Of a stretch of DNA of 64,000 nucleotides, positions 6,500-50,673 are shown piece by piece. The position numbers and the translations under genes are program-made. Within the stretch, counting starts at the first letter, position 1. Each line of letters opens with the position of its first letter. Origin of the DNA: Candidatus Saccharimonadales bacterium (GTDB taxonomy: Bacteria > Patescibacteriota > Saccharimonadia > Saccharimonadales > JANWIN01); assembly GCA_025449905.1 (NCBI GenBank), contig JANWIN010000011.1, positions 724 to 64,723 on the forward strand, in the 5' to 3' direction. Below the pieces are notes generated by a model. It was not told where the DNA came from, searched no databases, and saw only the letters and a program-made list of their open reading frames with translations.

Positions 6500-7870
6500 C
6501 TAGAATAGGTGTCGGGTATCTTTTACTCTTTGTTTAAATTCAGTACTTAAGACTTTTTTACCAACATCGCCACGCATAACTGGTCGTTCACCGTCAAACT
6601 TAATCCTGCTGGCGGCTTCATAATTCTCTTCTAATACTACTTCCAGACTTTCACCTTTGTAGGCAGTACGGCCGACTGATAATGACCGGCCAGCATTGGC
6701 TATATAATTTCCTTCTTCGTCTATTCTAGTTCCGTAATCAAAAACTCTAGCTAAATTATCATCAATATCTTTTAAGCCGGTAATAACTTGGCCTGCTTCG
6801 GTCGCGTCCGGATAACCCCGGGCGGCTAAGATTAAACAAGTGCTGGCAGCTTTACGCCAGTGAATTTCAGGCAGTTCACTTAGGCGATCTTGAGAACAGG
6901 CTAAAGCAATTTCTATAAAGTCGCTTTTATCGGTATCTAATAAGGGAGCCCAGACTTGAGTTTCTGGGTCGCCGGGGCGGGCGTTGTCTTCCAACTTCAT
7001 TGGCCCTTCGGCAGTTAGAATTAAGCCAGAGTAAAGAACGCCGGTGAAAGACCGTCCCGATTCGTATAGCTCATTTATCGTAGGTGCTACAAATTGACGA
7101 CCAAGTTTTTCGATATCATCAACTGCAATGCCAGGTGCTGGCGCCACAACCCCCATACCGCCAGTCATCGAACCTTCATCATTTTCGTCAACGGTTTTGT
7201 GATCAACCATGGCAAAGGGGTACATTACGTAGTCCCGTCCATTAACCCACGCATGCAAACCTATCTCGAAACCCACAAGGCCTTTTTCTAATATGACGCG
7301 CTGAGTTAACGAAAAGTCATTTTCTATGTCGGTTATTGGCATTAGAGCCTTGTGTAAGTCATCTAGGCAAGTTATTTTATCGACACCCTTGCCTCTTGCC
7401 GGCCTATCGCGTTTAGAATATAAGGGATTCTCAAAAGTAGCTCTAGGTGTAGCGTATTTTATGGCCTCGTCATAGGTTTTACAGACCACAAAATCCGCAG
7501 TTGGCTGGCCTGTTTTTACCATCAACTCTTTAGAAAAAACTTTAGAGGTCTCTACTTCAGCTGCTTTTTGTGATGGACCAAAAACTGCAATGCCGTACTC
7601 TGTTAGTGCATCACTGGTGCCGGCTAATAGAGCATCTTCTTGGCTTACTATTGCCAGGTCAATATTGTTGTTGCGCGCAAATTCAGCTACGCCCTCGGGG
7701 TCTGTGTGTAAAAGATGTTCACCGCTTTTATCTATTGCTAGGTCAGCTATGTTTTGCACCAGATCACTTCGTTGAGTAGTCCATAGCCTATTGGTGTGAG
7801 GAGATTCATTTGCCAACCAGGCCTCAGCATGAGCCCGAGCCGAGGTGGTATCAACAATCAATACATTCAT
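6500..7870 (-). CDS. Phosphoribosylamine-glycine ligase (PurD)-like ATP-grasp protein
   Basis: 456 aa with PurD-like N domain (MNVLIVD...), ATP-grasp core and C domain. Its stop codon abuts the rplT stop with a 0-nt gap. Confidence 0.65.
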   Translation of the reverse strand: MNVLIVDTTSARAHAEAWLANESPHTNRLWTTQRSDLVQNIADLAIDKSGEHLLHTDPEGVAEFARNNNIDLAIVSQEDALLAGTSDALTEYGIAVFGPSQKAAEVETSKVFSKELMVKTGQPTADFVVCKTYDEAIKYATPRATFENPLYSKRDRPARGKGVDKITCLDDLHKALMPITDIENDFSLTQRVILEKGLVGFEIGLHAWVNGRDYVMYPFAMVDHKTVDENDEGSMTGGMGVVAPAPGIAVDDIEKLGRQFVAPTINELYESGRSFTGVLYSGLILTAEGPMKLEDNARPGDPETQVWAPLLDTDKSDFIEIALACSQDRLSELPEIHWRKAASTCLILAARGYPDATEAGQVITGLKDIDDNLARVFDYGTRIDEEGNYIANAGRSLSVGRTAYKGESLEVVLEENYEAASRIKFDGERPVMRGDVGKKVLSTEFKQRVKDTRHLF

Positions 7871-7920: not shown

Positions 7921-7946
7921 AAAAATCCCAAAACGGGATTTTTTAA
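7921..7946 (-). terminator. Intrinsic terminator after rnpB
   Basis: Palindrome AAAUCCCGUUUUGGGAUUU followed by a U-run on the minus strand, immediately 3' of the RNase P RNA. Confidence 0.7.
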
Positions 7947-8297
7947 TGCCAGATTATCTGTAAGCCGGGTTTTGTCTGTCTGGTCATCTATCTAGGCCTT
8001 AAGTTGCCCTAAGGCTCGAGCGGTTCTTGTGACGCTTTTAAGGCAGGATACCATTGTTTAAAAGCATCTCCTTGCAGCAAACAGGGTTTACCACTTCGCC
8101 GTGTCACCACTGCGAATTGCGAGCTCTTACCTCGCTCTTTTCACCCTTGCCACCAGCTTTAGGCTGGCTTAGCGGTATAGTTTCTGTGGCACTTTCCCTA
8201 GAGTCGCCTCTGGTTGCCGTTAGCAACTGTCTTTTCCTTGAGCTGCCCGGACTTTCCTCGACAGGGCTACCTGTCGCGACCAGTCGATAATCTGGCA
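7947..8297 (-). ncRNA. rnpB: RNase P RNA (bacterial type A-like)
   Basis: The minus strand contains GAGGAAAGUCCGGGC (P4 5' strand) and ACAAAACCCGGCUUA (P4 3' strand). P1 forms by CCAGAUUAUC/GAUAAUCUGG. The two track ORFs here (8054-8290 and 8104-8298) are artefacts. Confidence 0.92.
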
Positions 8298-9446: not shown

Positions 9447-9480
9447 ACAATATTGGGCTATTATAGGGAAAAACTTTGGA

Positions 9481-9636
9481 CTTTGCATTTAAGTATTCTA
9501 GTAGGCGGCAATGAAGCGCGCAGTGAGGCGTACAAGCTGTACGGTGAACGAGCACTGCAATTGATAACAACGTAGAACACCAAAAGCACCAGCGGGGTTC
9601 GAGCTGCGCTCGAAAGCAGGCTGGTGCGGTGCAAAG
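9481..9636 (+). repeat. Structured repeat family, copy G
   Basis: Closing helix CUUUGCA/UGCAAAG, GGCGGCA box, P1 GCAGUG/CACUGC, CGUAC-AAGCU-GUACG hairpin, and second domain CACCAGC-GGGG-UUCGAGC-UGC-GCUCGAA-AGCAG-GCUGGUG. Confidence 0.6.
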
Positions 9637-9794
9637 CTCAAATTAAAAAGCTGAGAAGTCAGTGTGACAACCTGTAATATTGATTACAGGTGGGTGCTCT
9701 CACGAATTGGCCACGGCCAGTTCAAATCTTGAGCTCCCCAATGATAAGTATTCAGATTATCATTTATGGCTTCCCAGCCTAACTACATTATAGC

Positions 9795-20523: not shown

Positions 20524-20627
20524 AATTTTTCCTTTAACTTAGATTTGCTTATTGATAATTATAACAGATGTAAAATAATAACTAGCGTCGCACAATAATA
20601 ATTATGCTTTACAATTAGAATATGTAC

Positions 20628-20795
20628 AGAATTAATGCATTTGGATGCAAAACAGTATTTCTTTACGAGGAACTCCAGCGAAGCGTACATACGACGTACG
20701 TTGAAGCGAGTACCGCAGTAAAAAATGCTGTTTTGCGCCAAAATCCCGTGGCGCAGCCAGCTCCGCTGGATGGCAGGCGGGAGGTGCATAATTCT
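20628..20795 (+). repeat. Structured repeat family, copy E, immediately upstream of xerC
   Basis: P0 AGAAUUAAUGCA/UGCAUAAUUCU, GGAUGCA box, P1 GCAAAACAG/CUGUUUUGC, CGUAC-AUACGAC-GUACG hairpin, and second domain UCCCGU-GGCGCAG-CCAGC-UCC-GCUGG-AUGGCAG-GCGGGA. Confidence 0.7.
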
Positions 20796-20796
20796 G

Positions 20797-21714
20797 ATGC
20801 TGTTTCAGAAGGCTAAAACTGATTTTTTAGAATATCTAGAAATTGAGCAAAACCGCTCGCAAAAAACAATTTCTAACTACGACCACTATCTGACTCGCCT
20901 GCAGGACTACGCCGGTGATATAAAAGTTAGTGATATCGACGGCGACTTAATTCGCAAGTGGCGGATCTGGCTTAATCGTTTGGGAACAAATACTAGCGAA
21001 GAGTTAGAGAAAACCACTCAAAATTACCACTTGATTGCCCTTAGATCCTTTCTAAAGTTTTGTGCTAAAAACAACATTCCAGCCTTGTCAGCCGACAAAA
21101 TTGATTTAGCCAGAACGCGCCGCAAACAAGTAACATTTTTGAGCCCAGAGGAAGTGGAAAGACTGATAGCCCAACCCAAAACCGATACTCTGCCTGGACT
21201 GCGTGACCGCGCTATTTTAGAGCTGCTATTTTCCAGCGGACTGCGGGTTTCTGAGCTAGTCAATTTAAACAAAGATCATATAAATTTAAAACGGCGCGAA
21301 TTCACCGTCCGGGGTAAAGGTCAAAAAGACCGTCCGGTCTTTATCAGCCCGGCGGCGGCGCACTGGCTAGAGCTTTATTTGGACAAGCGAACAGATACGG
21401 TTAGTCCGCTTTTTGTGCGTTACAGCGGCAGCAAGCAAGTTGACCGCAGCGGTAATTTTCACCGTTTAACAGCCCGTAGTATTCAGCGAATGGTTGGCCG
21501 TCAGGCTAGACTGGCTGGTATTACTAAGCATGTTTCGCCGCATACACTGCGGCACTCTTTTGCCACCGATTTACTGATGAACGGCGCCGATTTGCGCAGC
21601 GTTCAAGCCCTTCTAGGACACAGTAATATTGCTACTACTCAGATTTATACGCATATTACCGACCCGCACCTGCGGGCCGTCCACGAGAAGTTTCATAACT
21701 CTGGCAAAGATTAA
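20797..21714 (+). CDS. XerC/XerD-family tyrosine recombinase
   Basis: SAM-like N domain plus catalytic R...HxxR...Y (HTLRHSFATDLL, LLGHSNIATTQIYTH). The start is moved to ATG 20797, which is preceded by GGGAGGUG; the track start at 20725 lies inside the repeat. Confidence 0.85.
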   Translation: MLFQKAKTDFLEYLEIEQNRSQKTISNYDHYLTRLQDYAGDIKVSDIDGDLIRKWRIWLNRLGTNTSEELEKTTQNYHLIALRSFLKFCAKNNIPALSADKIDLARTRRKQVTFLSPEEVERLIAQPKTDTLPGLRDRAILELLFSSGLRVSELVNLNKDHINLKRREFTVRGKGQKDRPVFISPAAAHWLELYLDKRTDTVSPLFVRYSGSKQVDRSGNFHRLTARSIQRMVGRQARLAGITKHVSPHTLRHSFATDLLMNGADLRSVQALLGHSNIATTQIYTHITDPHLRAVHEKFHNSGKD

Positions 21715-33694: not shown

Positions 33695-35683
33695 CTAAAA
33701 CGCTGGTGGTAAGCTAGTCAGTGAATCGTAGCTATTGGCCGGTGCGTCAGTCAGATTGGGATTAACCAGCCATAGTTCGGGGAGATAATTTATGACTTCA
33801 GCGATGTTGCCCGAGGTGCTTTGCTCGTTAGCGACGGCGTCTTTAACGTTGCCATTGACGCGCAAAAAGCGTATTTGGTCAGCCAGTAAGGCACCGTTTA
33901 CGGTTAATTTGTTTCTACATTTGTCACTATCGTATAACTGAGCTCCTGAGTACAGACTGCCGCCATTGGTACAAGTATATATATTACCGCCTTGAGCAAT
34001 GTAAACGCCGTCCAGATTAGTTACATCATTGTCTATATATATGTCGCCTTTCACTATTAGGTAAAAGGATGGTATCTGTTCCAAACTTGCCCAACTAGCA
34101 CTGCCTGAATAAGTAACATTGCCAGTAATTACCACTTTGCCGGTGTGTTTTATGACTTTATGCTGGCTGTCGCTAATTGAATCACCGTTATAGTTTCCAC
34201 CAACAATTGGGTCTGTGGAATTAGTAGTAATGTCAAAGTAATTGGGGGCACAAAGTTGGGCGGGCTGGAAATTCCCTCCCCACGTGCCGCTGGTGTTGGC
34301 AAAGGTTAAACCTGTCGGCGGTTGAGGATCCGTAGTACGCAAGTTGGCACTAGCAAATTCATTAATGGCACTGGGAGCTTGAGCCGCAAACTGCGTACCG
34401 GCACCGATGCCGTTACCGTCGTTGTAAGTTAATATGCCAGCGCTACCATTAGCGCTACAGCTGCTGCTACTGTCTAGAAAACCGTTGCCGGCTAGCACGT
34501 CGCCGCCATAGACTCTGACGTATGGTTTGTTGGCAATTGTTATATCTGCGTCACAGCCGCTAACGCTTCCAACTCCGCTTACATTAACACTGTAGCTGCC
34601 GTTATAAGTTCCCGCTGGAAAACCAGGAATATTTATATTGGGCGTTGTGGTTGCGCCGCCGCCCGCTGCCAGTGGAGGATTAGTTGCTGTGAAAGGCGGC
34701 GCGCCGGTAATTGTTAGCGTCAAGTTGTAACTATATGACGGACTTGAATTGCCGTTCTTAATTACAAAACCTGGCTTAGCAGTAAAGCCGGCCTCGTCAT
34801 TGGGTGGAGATGGGCTGGTTGAAAAAGTACCACACTCTATAGTTGGTGACGGTGTTGGAGGAGGTAGTGGTACACAATTACCTGAAGAGTCTAAATAGTA
34901 GCCAGTCGGCACACTTGATTGGTTACCGGGCAGATTAGGACATACATCAATCGGCTGATTTGGATAACAATTGCCTGACGAGTCTCTATAGTAGCCTGCC
35001 GGCACGGATGATTGATTGCCGGCAATGTTAAGACAAAGATCGGTTGGATTTGGATAACAATTGCCTGACGAGTCTCTATAGTAGCCTGCCGGCACGGATG
35101 ATTGATTCCCGGCAATATTCTTGCAAAGGTCGGTTGGCGGCGGTGGAGGAGGTGGAGGACTGGTAAGTTTTACCTTAAAACATGTTTTGACTCCATCAGT
35201 TTCGTGAGCACTACCATTAATTACAGCCTTGCCTGCCCACGCGTAACAAAGATCGTGTGTACCGGCACTTAGGCTGGAAACATCTAGTTTTATGCCAAAG
35301 TGCTGGTGATAAACTTGGCCTTTTCCAGATTGATAGGCAAAAAGGACTTGGCTTGGCATATTATTAATCTTAGAGTCTACAAAACCGGTATTAACTTGCG
35401 GAAATCCCGTAGCATTGTATGAAGCTCCATTACAAATATAATGTTCAGCAACCATGGTAGCGTTGAGGGTATTAGTGCTAGTGGTACCTGTATAAAGACC
35501 TTTGTCCGGCATTGTTAGAAAGCCAGTATATTTGAAGCCTGATCCGCTCCCACTTGGGCACCTAGAATTCCACCAGCTAACGCTGTTGTGAGCAGAAATT
35601 TTATTACTAATTAACAAAATAATTAACAAGCCTACGGCGGTAGTTATTAATAAAAGTTTTGATTTATTAGTTCGTTGTTTCAT
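33695..35683 (-). CDS. Large secreted/anchored repeat protein directly upstream of pilM
   Basis: 662 aa. Features in order: N-terminal TM or signal, a poly-Pro run, three 30-aa Cys-bracketed repeats (C.N..GNQSSVP.GYY.DSSGNC.P), and a C-terminal region with beta-helix-like VITGNVTY...IYIDNDVTNLDGVYIA. Confidence 0.7.
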   Translation of the reverse strand: MKQRTNKSKLLLITTAVGLLIILLISNKISAHNSVSWWNSRCPSGSGSGFKYTGFLTMPDKGLYTGTTSTNTLNATMVAEHYICNGASYNATGFPQVNTGFVDSKINNMPSQVLFAYQSGKGQVYHQHFGIKLDVSSLSAGTHDLCYAWAGKAVINGSAHETDGVKTCFKVKLTSPPPPPPPPTDLCKNIAGNQSSVPAGYYRDSSGNCYPNPTDLCLNIAGNQSSVPAGYYRDSSGNCYPNQPIDVCPNLPGNQSSVPTGYYLDSSGNCVPLPPPTPSPTIECGTFSTSPSPPNDEAGFTAKPGFVIKNGNSSPSYSYNLTLTITGAPPFTATNPPLAAGGGATTTPNINIPGFPAGTYNGSYSVNVSGVGSVSGCDADITIANKPYVRVYGGDVLAGNGFLDSSSSCSANGSAGILTYNDGNGIGAGTQFAAQAPSAINEFASANLRTTDPQPPTGLTFANTSGTWGGNFQPAQLCAPNYFDITTNSTDPIVGGNYNGDSISDSQHKVIKHTGKVVITGNVTYSGSASWASLEQIPSFYLIVKGDIYIDNDVTNLDGVYIAQGGNIYTCTNGGSLYSGAQLYDSDKCRNKLTVNGALLADQIRFLRVNGNVKDAVANEQSTSGNIAEVINYLPELWLVNPNLTDAPANSYDSLTSLPPAF
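34868..35137 (-). repeat. Three tandem 90-nt coding repeats
   Basis: Positions 34958-35017 and 35048-35107 are identical over 60 nt. A third unit (34868-34957) is diverged. The period is 90 nt, or 30 codons. Confidence 0.85.
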
Positions 35684-36524: not shown

Positions 36525-37598
36525 ATGTCTCTGTCTATAGGTATTGTTGGTTTGCCTAACGTCGGTAAGTCGACACTGTTTAATGCCCTTACCAATAATA
36601 AAGTACTGGCCGCTAACTACCCTTTCGCCACTATTGAACCAAATACCGGTGCCGTACCCGTGCCGGATGATAGATTAAAAAAATTAGCTGAGTTTTATCC
36701 GGCCGCCAAAATTATTCCCGCCAACGTCACTTTTGTCGATATTGCTGGACTGGTGGCCGGCGCCAGCCAAGGCGAAGGTTTGGGCAATCAGTTTTTGGCA
36801 CACATTCGCAGCGCCAATGCCATTGTTCAGGTGGTTCGCGCTTTTGAAGACTCTAATGTTCAGCATGTTGATATTAAGCACAATCCCAAAAGTGACATTG
36901 AAATTATAAACACTGAGCTAGCTCTAGCTGACCTTCAGACTGTCGAAAAACGCCTACACCATTTGGAAAAAGAGGCCAAAGCCAATCCCAAACTAAGGCC
37001 AGTACTTGATAGCCTGCACACTGCGCATAAATTATTGAACCAGGGTCAGGCCTTAACTGCAGAAAATGGTGTTAATTTGGAGCATTTAACAGATTTGGGA
37101 CTCCTAAGTGCTAAACCCATAATTTATGTATTCAACGTTGATGAGAAGACGCTTGATAATGATAAACATCAAGAATTATCTAGCCTGGTTTCACCAGCCA
37201 AAGCACTGTTTTTATCAGCCAAGTTGGAGGATGAGCTAAAAGATTTAGACGAAACAGATGCGCGCGAGCTGCTAAAAAGTTACGGCCAAAATGAGTCGGG
37301 CTTAGTCCAATTAATTCACGCCGCTTATGCTGCGCTTAAGCTACAAAGCTTCCTAACAGCTGGCGATACGGAAGTGCGGGCTTGGACAATTAAACAAAGT
37401 TCGACAGCACCACAAGCCGCTGGAGTTATTCACAGTGACTTTGAACGCGGCTTTATAGCCGCCGATGTCATTAATTTTAACGATCTTATGGAAGTTGGCT
37501 CTTGGCCAGCTGCTCGCAGTGCTGGAAAAGTCCGCACCGAAGGTAAAACCTACATTGTTGGTCCAAATGATGTTATAGAATTTCGTTTTAATGTGTAG
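36525..37598 (+). CDS. ychF: Redox-regulated ATPase YchF
   Basis: GIVGLPNVGKSTLFNAL G1 motif, a TGS-like C-terminus, ending ...IEFRFNV. Confidence 0.92.
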   Translation: MSLSIGIVGLPNVGKSTLFNALTNNKVLAANYPFATIEPNTGAVPVPDDRLKKLAEFYPAAKIIPANVTFVDIAGLVAGASQGEGLGNQFLAHIRSANAIVQVVRAFEDSNVQHVDIKHNPKSDIEIINTELALADLQTVEKRLHHLEKEAKANPKLRPVLDSLHTAHKLLNQGQALTAENGVNLEHLTDLGLLSAKPIIYVFNVDEKTLDNDKHQELSSLVSPAKALFLSAKLEDELKDLDETDARELLKSYGQNESGLVQLIHAAYAALKLQSFLTAGDTEVRAWTIKQSSTAPQAAGVIHSDFERGFIAADVINFNDLMEVGSWPAARSAGKVRTEGKTYIVGPNDVIEFRFNV

Positions 37599-37711: not shown

Positions 37712-38365
37712 CTAGCGCCAATTAAGGACTACGCCTTTGATGGTTTCGATGATCTTATCGTGTTCAGGTAGTTTATTGTCCTGATAATAATGATTAGTCT
37801 CCATGTAATTATCTATTACGCTTAGGCAATGTATTTCATCAGCAACTACATGCATTCTATCTACGGCTGGTACGCTGGCCAGCGGCGTTGCCACTATTAA
37901 TTTTTCCATTTTAACTGGCTTTAAGTACTCGCTTGCGGCATCTAGTGAAAAAGCATTTTTTAGTCCGTCAGAAACTAAAATTACGTTATGTCCATAAAGT
38001 AAATCGCGGCGCAGCAGCCCGCCCTGGCCTAGTAGTTGGTTGATATCATGAAGTTTTTGCAGTCGGCCTTCGGCTATAGTGTTTTGAAATTCGGTTTTCA
38101 GTTCTTCCAGCTGGCCGCCCGAGTACATATTATTGTAAGTAAAGCCGCCATCTTGATCGACCGCTCCAATTGCTTCCGGTTCGCCGGGAATCTTGACGGC
38201 CTCTGTTAAAAACAGAGTCAGCACACAGTGCAAGGCTTGGGCAATTTGAGCAGCAACCACAACCCCGCCATCGCTCAAAGCCACTACAGCACAGTTTTCA
38301 TAGCGATATGGCTCAAGTTCTTTGGCCAATTTTTGACCGGCTTCCACTCGACTGGCGAAGTACAT
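37712..38365 (-). CDS. Phosphoribosyltransferase-family protein
   Basis: 217 aa with a PRPP-loop-like VILVSDGLKNAFS. Confidence 0.55.
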   Translation of the reverse strand: MYFASRVEAGQKLAKELEPYRYENCAVVALSDGGVVVAAQIAQALHCVLTLFLTEAVKIPGEPEAIGAVDQDGGFTYNNMYSGGQLEELKTEFQNTIAEGRLQKLHDINQLLGQGGLLRRDLLYGHNVILVSDGLKNAFSLDAASEYLKPVKMEKLIVATPLASVPAVDRMHVVADEIHCLSVIDNYMETNHYYQDNKLPEHDKIIETIKGVVLNWR

Positions 38366-38368
38366 ACC

Positions 38369-38536
38369 ACAAGTTTCGCATCAGATTGACCTGCTGTCCA
38401 GCAAAGCTGGTCACTCAGTCAATCTTCTTGGCGCATCGCTTTGTCAGCTACGCTCTATCTCTCGCTCATCGTACTTTTGTACGTCTCGCTCGCTTTTCTC
38501 TACTTCCTAGCGCTGCATCCAAGTGCGAAAACTTGT
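38369..38536 (-). repeat. Structured repeat family, copy A, filling the tlyA-PRTase intergenic region
   Basis: P0 ACAAGUUUUCGCA/UGCGAAACUUGU, GGAUGCA box, CGUAC-AAAA-GUACG hairpin flanked by GCGAG-rich strands, and second domain GAUUGAC-UGAGUGA-CCAGC-UUU-GCUGG-ACAGCAG-GUCAAUC. Confidence 0.7.
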
Positions 38537-49899: not shown

Positions 49900-50673
49900 T
49901 TAGGCTGTCTTTTTTATAAGTTTTAAGATGTCCGGAATCCGGGCAAAGTCATCTATTAAAGTTTGGCGCATAGCGCCGTTATAAAGAGCGGCCGCCGGAT
50001 GAAACAGCGGCAGGATGACCAAGGACGTAATAGACTGCTCGTCGGCTGAGCCGCCGACTCTGCTATTACTTGCGACGAATTGCTGCGTCAGCTGCGTGCG
50101 AGACTCACTCTTCGTACCATCTGTACGTTTCGTTCGTTTCTCCTTGCTTCCTTGCACTTCATCCGCCCCTAGGTCTCCTGTAGGTCTGGACTGTGTGCTG
50201 TCAGCTGTCAGCTGTAACCTAATCCTCTTGGGCTGTCCGTGAACTTCGCCGATTGATAAATCTGGCAAGAAACAATTCATGCTATGACGGCCCAATGTAG
50301 CTACAATTTTGGGCTTAATTACTTTCAATTGAGTCTGCAAAAACGGCAAGAAAGCCACCTTCTCTTCCGGCAATGGATCACGGTTATTGGGTGGGCGGTA
50401 TTTAACAATGTTTGTTATGTATACGTCGGTTCTTTTTAGGCCTATCATCTCCAGCATTTCGTTTAAAAACTTGCCAGCGGCGCCAACGAATGGCAAGCCT
50501 TGCAGGTCTTCGTTTTTACCCGGTGCTTCGCCGACAAAAACAATGTCGGCATCAGCATTGCCGTCGCCAAACACCAGTTGGGTGGCCTCTTTTGCCAGTT
50601 CAGGACAAACTTTTTGCTCAATTATTGATTTAGCAATTTTATCCAGCTGGTTTTGCTTGGCTATTTTAGTCAT
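49900..50673 (-). CDS. Family-4 uracil-DNA glycosylase carrying an in-frame insertion of about 60-65 codons
   Basis: GEAPG motif A and HPAA motif B are present. About 85 residues separate VHGQP from HPAA, far more than the roughly 15-25 residues I recall for typical family-4 enzymes. Confidence 0.8.
   Translation of the reverse strand: MTKIAKQNQLDKIAKSIIEQKVCPELAKEATQLVFGDGNADADIVFVGEAPGKNEDLQGLPFVGAAGKFLNEMLEMIGLKRTDVYITNIVKYRPPNNRDPLPEEKVAFLPFLQTQLKVIKPKIVATLGRHSMNCFLPDLSIGEVHGQPKRIRLQLTADSTQSRPTGDLGADEVQGSKEKRTKRTDGTKSESRTQLTQQFVASNSRVGGSADEQSITSLVILPLFHPAAALYNGAMRQTLIDDFARIPDILKLIKKTA
50017..50175 (-). repeat. Structured repeat family, copy B, inside the UDG ORF
   Basis: P0 GACCUAGGG/UCCUUGGUC, GGAUGAA box, CGUAC-AGAUG-GUACG hairpin, and second domain GUAAUAG-CAGA-GUCGGC-GGCUCA-GCCGAC-GAGCAGU-CUAUUAC. 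The central 60 nt are about 75% identical to copy A. Confidence 0.7.

Follow-up and report, generated by a model that had tools for sequence, protein, structure and literature searches.

The recombinase gene xerC in a 64,000-nt stretch of a Candidatus Saccharimonadales genome (contig JANWIN010000011.1; hereafter the window) begins directly behind a self-folding repeat, copy E, one of a dispersed family of ~168-nt elements. Comparison with related genomes shows that xerC was once leaderless and that copy E came to be inserted at its former start codon in this lineage alone. In the predicted fold of the element both the Shine-Dalgarno (SD)-like sequence and the start codon of xerC are buried, and the same calculation on other members of the family indicates that this burial follows from the architecture of the repeat and is not a switch evolved for xerC. 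Taken as a whole, the best reading, to which we assign a probability of about 0.55, is that the element landed on a leaderless gene, buried its start as it would any start that it adjoins, and left the recombinase to be made by translation coupled to an upstream open reading frame (uORF) that begins at the old start codon. A first-pass annotation of the same DNA had instead proposed that the module can act as a translational gate when it sits in a 5' leader.

The gene itself is intact (20797-21714, + strand), encoding a XerC/XerD-type tyrosine recombinase of 305 amino acids with Pfam Phage_integrase and SAM-like domains, and is 88% identical to its nearest relative (on contig L162), with a nonsynonymous divergence (pN) of 0.08 against a saturated synonymous divergence (pS) of 0.82. 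Its start at 20797 is confirmed by orthologues that align from residue 1 (MLFS, MQFS and similar), which makes the longer start at 20725 spurious, a by-product of the element as the first-pass annotation had supposed. No element-derived N-terminal extension occurs among ~120 close XerC homologues, and a look-up for proteins exactly identical to the XerC of the window gave none. In the ~24 orthologous loci that were read directly, the spacer between ndk and xerC measures 70-100 nt and holds no element, and orthologues carry TACAAT or TATAAT 6-9 nt 5' of the xerC ATG. BLAST alignments to the window end near 20535, on the ndk side, and restart at 20791-20797. The nearest relative offers a clean empty site, TACAAT-GAGGTT-ATGCTATTT, against which the filled site of the window reads TACAAT (20610-20615), TAGAAT, ATG (20622), then TAC, the element and CTG, and finally ATG (20797) followed by CTGTTT. 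An ATG thus stands on both sides of copy E, and nothing other than that ATG is duplicated. Only the window carries an element at this site; in all relatives examined the xerC leader lacks one, which marks copy E as an insertion specific to its lineage rather than a conserved leader.

Alignment with the empty site identifies TACAAT (20610-20615, + strand) as the putative -10 box of the ancestral leaderless promoter and the ATG 6 nt after it (20622-20624, + strand) as the ancestral start codon, split from its gene by the insertion. An alternative old start at ATG 20604, with a target duplication of ATGCT(G)TT, was considered and rejected, because the nearest relative carries the same ATGTTTTACAAT upstream; the true old start is accordingly ATG 20622. 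The inferred promoter arrangement is not peculiar to this gene. In 14 of 55 window genes (for instance at 36525, 19902, 59188 and 11903) a -10-like hexamer, TACAAT or TATAAT, stands 6-9 nt before the start; these make up 14 of 51 hexamer matches, where ~3.7 would be expected at that distance, and none falls at 3-5 nt. Leaderless mRNAs therefore appear to be common in this genome, from which it would follow that transcription from the old promoter now begins at about 20622. No promoter-like site could be placed between the element and the xerC ATG. One candidate, CATAAT at 20787-20792, is an unlikely internal promoter for a leaderless xerC, standing 4 nt from the ATG (the range in the genome is 6-9) with no -35 box or TG motif. 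With no promoter fitting before the ATG and the ancestral -10 box just upstream, copy E probably lies inside the xerC transcript, and a transcription start downstream of the element is unlikely.

The same comparison bears on annotation in general. Elements of this kind create spurious open reading frames (ORFs) and false long starts, the 20725 start and extended XerC proteins in databases among them. XerC entries P0122, P0125, P0126 and P0131 are extended upstream through the leaderless promoter, a systematic mis-annotation of starts, and the extensions added by gene callers read ...FYNEV-M or ...SYNMV-M, which is the translated -10 box.

Copy E (20627-20796) is predicted to form a three-way junction in which a closing helix, P0, encloses one long and one short hairpin. 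The minimum free energy (MFE) of positions 20620-20810 is -80.3 kcal/mol against -50.9 +/- 4.0 for dinucleotide shuffles (z = -7.4; none of 200 shuffles as good), and this, with the covariation across the family described below, bears out the claim that the element is a genuine structured repeat. Pairing was read from the MFE structure and the ensemble of a transcript spanning 20604-20835. The 5' strand of P0 (20627-20640, + strand), a helix that covaries across the family (helix 1 of the model), pairs with its 3' strand (20784-20796), which ends directly at the xerC AUG; U20798-C20800 pair in addition with A20626-G20624, so that P0 extends into the start codon, whose U and G are held by A20626 and U20625. 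Domain 1 (20641-20741) is the long hairpin, with conserved GA-rich internal loops and a CGUACA...GUACG apical stem. Domain 2 (20744-20782), whose helices 8 and 9 covary, is the short one, and the 3' strand of its outer helix (GCGGGA, 20777-20782) covers the 5' part of the SD-like sequence GGGAGGUG (20779-20786), with G20777-A20782 paired to U20749-U20744. The overlap of this helix with the ribosome-binding site, noticed in the first-pass annotation, is thus reproduced, as is the pairing of the P0 3' strand close to the ATG, except that this strand does not end 2 nt short of the start codon and reaches the AUG itself. The SD-like run that had been called the only good ribosome-binding site is present, but its core is not ideally placed.

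If the element folds in this way the ribosome-binding site is base-paired, as had been predicted. The probability of being unpaired is below 0.001 per base at 20778-20781 and 20786-20787, and G20783 (0.73) and A20797 (0.98) are the only mostly free bases near the start. Opening the 8-mer GGGAGGUG would cost 13.5 kcal/mol (a probability of ~3e-10 that all of it is unpaired), opening GGAGG alone 8.5 kcal/mol, and opening the region from -20 to +13 of xerC 22-23 kcal/mol; these energies are the same for a transcript 5' end at 20560, 20604 or 20622. At 22.8 kcal/mol the xerC start is the most buried of the 55 gene starts in the window, for which the median is ~8-9 kcal/mol. No competing conformer or alternative pairing to P0 appears in the computed ensemble, where one fold dominates. 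The SD-like run joins the final bases of the domain-2 helix, which is variable and covaries, to the conserved junction GG, and is not a feature of the family.

Burial of this kind recurs wherever a member of the family adjoins a start codon. The PRTase start behind copy A, where as previously claimed the P0 3' strand ends 3 nt before the ATG at 38365, is the fourth most buried of the 55 (16.8 kcal/mol; 14-17 across calculations). When the same opening-energy calculation is run on family copies adjoining start codons, it returns 23.8 kcal/mol for rpmA (ribosomal protein L27), 27.5 for a gene on contig L152 and 21.9 for its orthologue on L118, 23.2 for rnhB and 14.3 for PRTase, and 6.9 kcal/mol for a gene that starts 19 nt past its copy. 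Every start-abutting copy is computed to bury the start codon, and the burial is generic because the family fold pairs its own 5' and 3' ends. On these models it follows that burial of the xerC start is a by-product of the architecture of the family. The start of rpmA, an essential gene, is equally buried, so cells must have a routine way round the obstacle.

For xerC, the way round that we favour begins with the old promoter. The mRNA would still start at about 20622 and would now carry the whole element as its leader, with XerC made from the second ATG (20797). Ribosomes would load on the 5'-terminal AUG at 20622, which keeps the canonical leaderless spacing of a -10 box, six nucleotides and ATG, and would read a 64-codon candidate coupling uORF (20622-20816, + strand; stop at 20814-20816) through the entire element, melting P0 and domain 2 as they went and stopping 17 nt past the xerC AUG, where coupled initiation or reinitiation could follow. 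The net effect would be constitutive damping with coupling and not gating by ligand or temperature. Family members preceded at 9-14 nt by the stop codon of an upstream gene could work in a related manner, the terminating ribosome reaching the 5' strand of P0 while P0 holds the downstream start alongside. In favour of the uORF at xerC, its frame is stop-free in only one of 28 family copies, the others having 1-4 stops. Translational coupling through long-range mRNA structure is established for the coat and replicase genes of phage MS2, and the mechanism proposed for xerC resembles it in that an upstream ribosome would melt the helix that hides a downstream start; the two differ in that the xerC helix belongs to an inserted repeat and the coupling is deduced from geometry alone.

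Several points weigh against this reading. The start of transcription at about 20622, translation of the uORF and coupling are steps that we infer, all three, from sequence. At a chance probability of roughly 4-8%, the open uORF frame of copy E is no more than suggestive. Reinitiation at a site 17 nt ahead of a stop codon can occur, but as a rule it is inefficient. The GGAGG core stands 12 nt 5' of the xerC AUG, beyond the optimal SD spacing, and the energy models leave out co-transcriptional folding and proteins. Finally, the fold has been kept by compensatory change in orthologous copies inside a protein gene, as set out below, so that the element may have a host-level RNA function, possibly including regulation.

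A different use of the same open frames would make XerC an N-terminally extended fusion from ATG 20622, produced by a +1 slip or transcriptional slippage at a run of six adenines (A6; 20720-20725, + strand), or encoded directly if the run is in truth A5 and the assembly has a homopolymer error; the element would then be an in-frame insertion and the internal SD irrelevant. The run lies where the uORF and xerC frames meet. Frame 0 is open from 20622 up to it, the xerC frame is open from 20722, and the only xerC-frame stop within the element (TAA, 20719-20721) overlaps it, so that loss of one A would join ATG 20622 to xerC in one continuous ORF. Five other copies of the family do lie in frame within genes, all with lengths that are multiples of 3. 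Yet A6 is short for slippage or phase variation, a composite open path of this kind has a chance of ~8%, the 5' half would be read in another register than in those five copies, and a duplicated ATG with an SD-like run upstream of it fits internal initiation; we regard the fusion as very unlikely.

Processing offers another way round a buried start: cleavage of the RNA at the 3' boundary of the element would release a leaderless or near-leaderless xerC mRNA, and the buried SD would never be used. P0 ends 0-4 nt from a start codon in six independent copies and, at a tmRNA and a tRNA, 0-3 nt from the mature 5' end, leaderless mRNAs appear frequent in this genome, and essential rpmA tolerates the same geometry. 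Such cleavage would, however, destroy the mRNAs of genes that carry a copy within their ORF, no ribozyme family matches the element, and tight abutment is also to be expected where intergenic spacers are very short, all of which leaves processing improbable. We hold it to be similarly improbable that the insertion is neutral or slightly harmful junk, with low XerC from rare opening or a gene on its way to being lost, and with uORF and SD both unselected. An insertion confined to one lineage, the very strong occlusion, the weak statistics of the uORF and the view of Rickettsia palindromic elements (RPEs) as tolerated selfish insertions (PMC2229807) would all suit such a history; set against it, the xerC ORF has stayed intact over a branch on which synonymous sites are saturated, and with 23 kcal/mol needed to open the start, spontaneous access would be negligible (P ~1e-16).

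The family to which copy E belongs is real and strongly supported. A covariance model (R1) built from three window copies, and a second, broader model, both run with filters off, find exactly four copies in the window, at 84-168 bits: copy A (38368-38535, - strand, 168 bits), a tRNA-side copy (9476-9642, + strand, 157 bits), copy E (20628-20797, + strand, 137 bits) and a copy inside a uracil-DNA glycosylase (UDG) gene (50012-50179, - strand, 84 bits). The fifth copy that the lettering of the first-pass annotation implied was found with neither model. Metagenome contigs scanned for the conserved core pattern gave 72 loci with 72 model matches within them, and in their alignment 90% of cells are paired and 42 of 48 pairs have changed on both sides (540 cells), values reached by none of 500 shuffles; the alignment was fitted to the model, which inflates the figures somewhat, and the margin is very large. 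When partners are slid by 1-3 columns as a control, pairing falls to only 29-40%. P0 is kept as pairing and not as sequence, all six of its modelled pairs showing double changes while the ends vary between copies, and the window copies share only ~50-70% identity with one another. The fold is specific to one strand by virtue of conserved G-U pairs. Also conserved are unpaired positions, namely two tandem-GA loops beside the CGUACA...GUACG stem, an AAGGAAG/CUGAC loop and a GCAGG in domain 2. We conclude that the element is a dispersed family of ~168-nt three-way junctions in Saccharibacteria.

The family is apparently undescribed and lacks a model in Rfam 15. A scan of the whole window at the gathering threshold returned RNase P RNA and tRNAs and nothing else, sensitive scans run on copy E, copy A and the tRNA-side copy gave only noise (E >= 0.5), the related metagenome loci had no Rfam match, and a literature search on repeats or non-coding RNAs of Saccharibacteria and the candidate phyla radiation found no description of such a family. 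There was no Rfam match to a group I or group II intron that would suggest a catalytic core, and retrons, integron attC sites, IS200/605 ends, hammerheads and signal recognition particle or 6S RNAs were set aside on architecture, dispersal or the lack of an Rfam match. Carriage by phages was rejected after viral contigs gave no match to the core pattern. Shorter relatives exist, some consisting of domain 1 only and some of a single long hairpin, a few of them on contigs of ~70% G+C. Single hairpins on such contigs, which share the apex GAGCGAG-CGUAC...GUACG-UGAGCGAG, lie at L127 289-364, L106 915-989, L113 4364-4437 and L093 1386-1460; the ~70% G+C of these contigs is far from Saccharibacteria composition.

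Members of the family occur in settings that have little in common. Intergenic copies stand in both orientations, roughly 16 sense to 6 antisense with respect to their neighbours. Six of 11 sense intergenic copies have an upstream same-strand stop codon 9-14 nt before P0, as with copy A, which lies between an FtsJ-like methyltransferase gene, whose stop is 9 nt upstream (38544, against an element start at 38535), and the PRTase gene, whose ATG at 38365 is 3 nt downstream (neighbours identified by Pfam). Several end 0-4 nt before a start codon, those of xerC, PRTase, rpmA, rnhB and one gene in two genomes (L152 and L118). Others abut RNA genes: a copy at L149 6495-6661 ends 0 nt before a tmRNA (6662-7053), at its mature 5' end, and another at L110 45-215 ends 3 nt before tRNA-Asp (219-296), so that the element would be an RNase P leader of the tmRNA and the tRNA. 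The tRNA-side copy of the window lies on the strand opposite to that of its two neighbouring genes, with 30 nt between it and the 5' end of a tRNA gene that comparison with contig L095 identifies as tRNA-Pro. This copy is conserved in L095 (5878-6045) together with its flanks and a downstream hairpin (~9672-9693 in the window); it may be an independent RNA gene. In two animal-associated genomes (L049 3461-3900; L075 3742-3881 and 4749-5087) domain-1-only copies form tandem arrays that separate pilC from the major pilin gene and lie on the strand opposite to these genes. Around a methyltransferase gene and rpmA, elements occupy three places in different genomes, two within an ORF and one in the spacer before rpmA (L150 619-1350 and 439-606; L088 2825-2991; L082 7267-7434), and this neighbourhood may be an insertion hot spot. 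An apparent split, intron-like rpmA in L088 proved to be a domain-1-only copy, the apparent match to domain 2 having come from rpmA codons in the model alignment. A search for systematic target-site duplication turned up none beyond chance, flank repeats averaging 5.7 nt against 5.3 nt in mismatched controls.

These settings bear on the case for regulation. A regulated gate would have the element sense a ligand, temperature or a protein through its loops and open or close P0 for XerC and for PRTase. The SD and AUG are buried as such a gate would need, the conserved unpaired nucleotides and covarying stems are aptamer-like, the fold is maintained even within a coding region in a manner that suggests function, and SD-like runs occur in the P0 3' strand of several start-abutting copies. 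Translational riboswitches, RNA thermometers and the fold-back of the IS10 transposase mRNA share with xerC a helix of upstream sequence that buries SD and AUG; what sets them apart is an open conformer as alternative, or a defined trigger, together with a conserved tie to the gene that they regulate, none of which was found here. The element is not conserved at xerC, its neighbours (xerC, PRTase, rpmA, rnhB, tRNA, tmRNA) are unrelated and no conserved link to any gene class was found, nothing competes with P0 in the ensemble, the same geometry recurs at the start of essential rpmA, and neither a ligand signature nor a conserved SD was found for copy E or the family, which has no Rfam match. 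Copies in unrelated contexts, in both orientations, within ORFs, at RNA genes and in tandem do not fit a cis-regulator. The gate proposed in the first-pass annotation is therefore unproven, and we consider it unlikely to be a selected function of the element at xerC.

Copies also occur inside protein genes. Five independent ones split recognised domains, in the family-4 UDG of the window, in LigA (NAD-dependent DNA ligase), in Dus (tRNA-dihydrouridine synthase) and at two sites in a methyltransferase. All five are in sense orientation and the same register, stop-free, and 168 or 171 nt long, unlike intergenic copies, whose lengths of 165-178 nt show no bias towards multiples of 3 and which have stops in that register in two thirds of cases; this difference points to read-through translation and not to splicing. 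In the window UDG gene (49900-50673, - strand) the copy contributes an in-frame insertion of ~56-63 amino acids. Its orthologues at 60-85% identity include long and short forms: many at 62-83% have the insertion, with a recognisable peptide VQGSKEKRT.RT.GT.SESR.QLTQQ, and others at up to 85% do not. The insertion is not recent. At the DNA level six long forms and two short forms were compared, the long forms scoring 75-117 bits with the model and the short ones giving no match. The last ~30 nt of the model match overlap sequence that is also present in one short-form class in the empty-site comparison, and the boundaries of the insertion are for that reason uncertain, shifted by a few codons from the ends of the model.

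In the alignment of the six orthologous UDG sequences 90% of cells are paired, and changes on both sides are seen at 25 of 48 pairs, against 2-6 such pairs in slid controls; none of 500 shuffles attains the observed value. The closer the genomes, the more alike are the helices. This looks like compensatory evolution in place, the alternative being repeated conversion from other copies. From the retention of the fold in these orthologues one may argue that the family is more than selfish DNA that the host tolerates: an RNA module with a function for the host, a three-way junction whose conserved tandem-GA loops would bind a trans-acting factor. Its paired ends could keep the flanking sequences adjacent, whether in a leader, between cistrons or in frame within a coding sequence; in the first two settings it would tie a downstream start 0-4 nt away to translation upstream, where the stop lies 9-14 nt before P0. 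We think this rather doubtful, while allowing it some weight.

Comparison with known repeats favours analogy over kinship. The RPEs described by Ogata et al. (2000), as recounted in PMC2229807 and PMC10969869, make in-frame insertions within protein genes. They and the present family are alike in being dispersed self-folding repeats of ~100-170 nt, in lying between genes, at RNA genes and, in frame, within conserved housekeeping genes, and in adding hydrophilic, apparently tolerated peptides with no transposase attached. RPEs differ in belonging to another phylum and in forming a simple long hairpin, where the present elements form a three-way junction with conserved unpaired nucleotides; copies of this family are, in addition, deeply diverged, with stems kept by compensatory change and a terminal pairing conserved as structure only. 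Homology is unlikely given the phylum and the fold, and the likeness is best taken as analogy, no sequence relationship emerging from a comparison made through Rfam only. The Correia/NEMIS, ERIC, YPAL and BOX repeats (PMC2229807) are likewise small and non-autonomous, yield stable transcripts with paired 5' and 3' ends, and are co-transcribed with neighbours whose mRNA processing, stability or translation they can alter as a side effect of insertion. These repeats, which resemble miniature inverted-repeat transposable elements, are bounded by terminal inverted repeats conserved in sequence, usually duplicate a TA target, and occur within a genome as near-identical copies, in contrast to a family with no consistent target duplication, a covarying P0 and window copies as diverged as those reported above.

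On this reading xerC represents a natural experiment in which a leaderless gene was converted to one with a 175-nt structured leader and survived, and it provides a test case for how ribosomes reach buried starts, be it by uORF coupling, slippage or processing. The family as a whole is RPE-like in behaviour, in the reduced genomes of Saccharibacteria and with an RNA-type fold kept inside housekeeping coding sequences. If that fold is selected in place, the mRNAs of these genomes would harbour a reusable RNA module, whatever its function; otherwise the spread of these small repeats would be unusually dependent on structure.

Apart from the repeat family, the window holds a class A bacterial RNase P RNA (7945-8295, - strand, 248 bits), six tRNA genes and, within a 662-amino-acid ORF (33695-35683, - strand), three tandem 90-nt repeats at 34864-35136 that are 70-92% identical.

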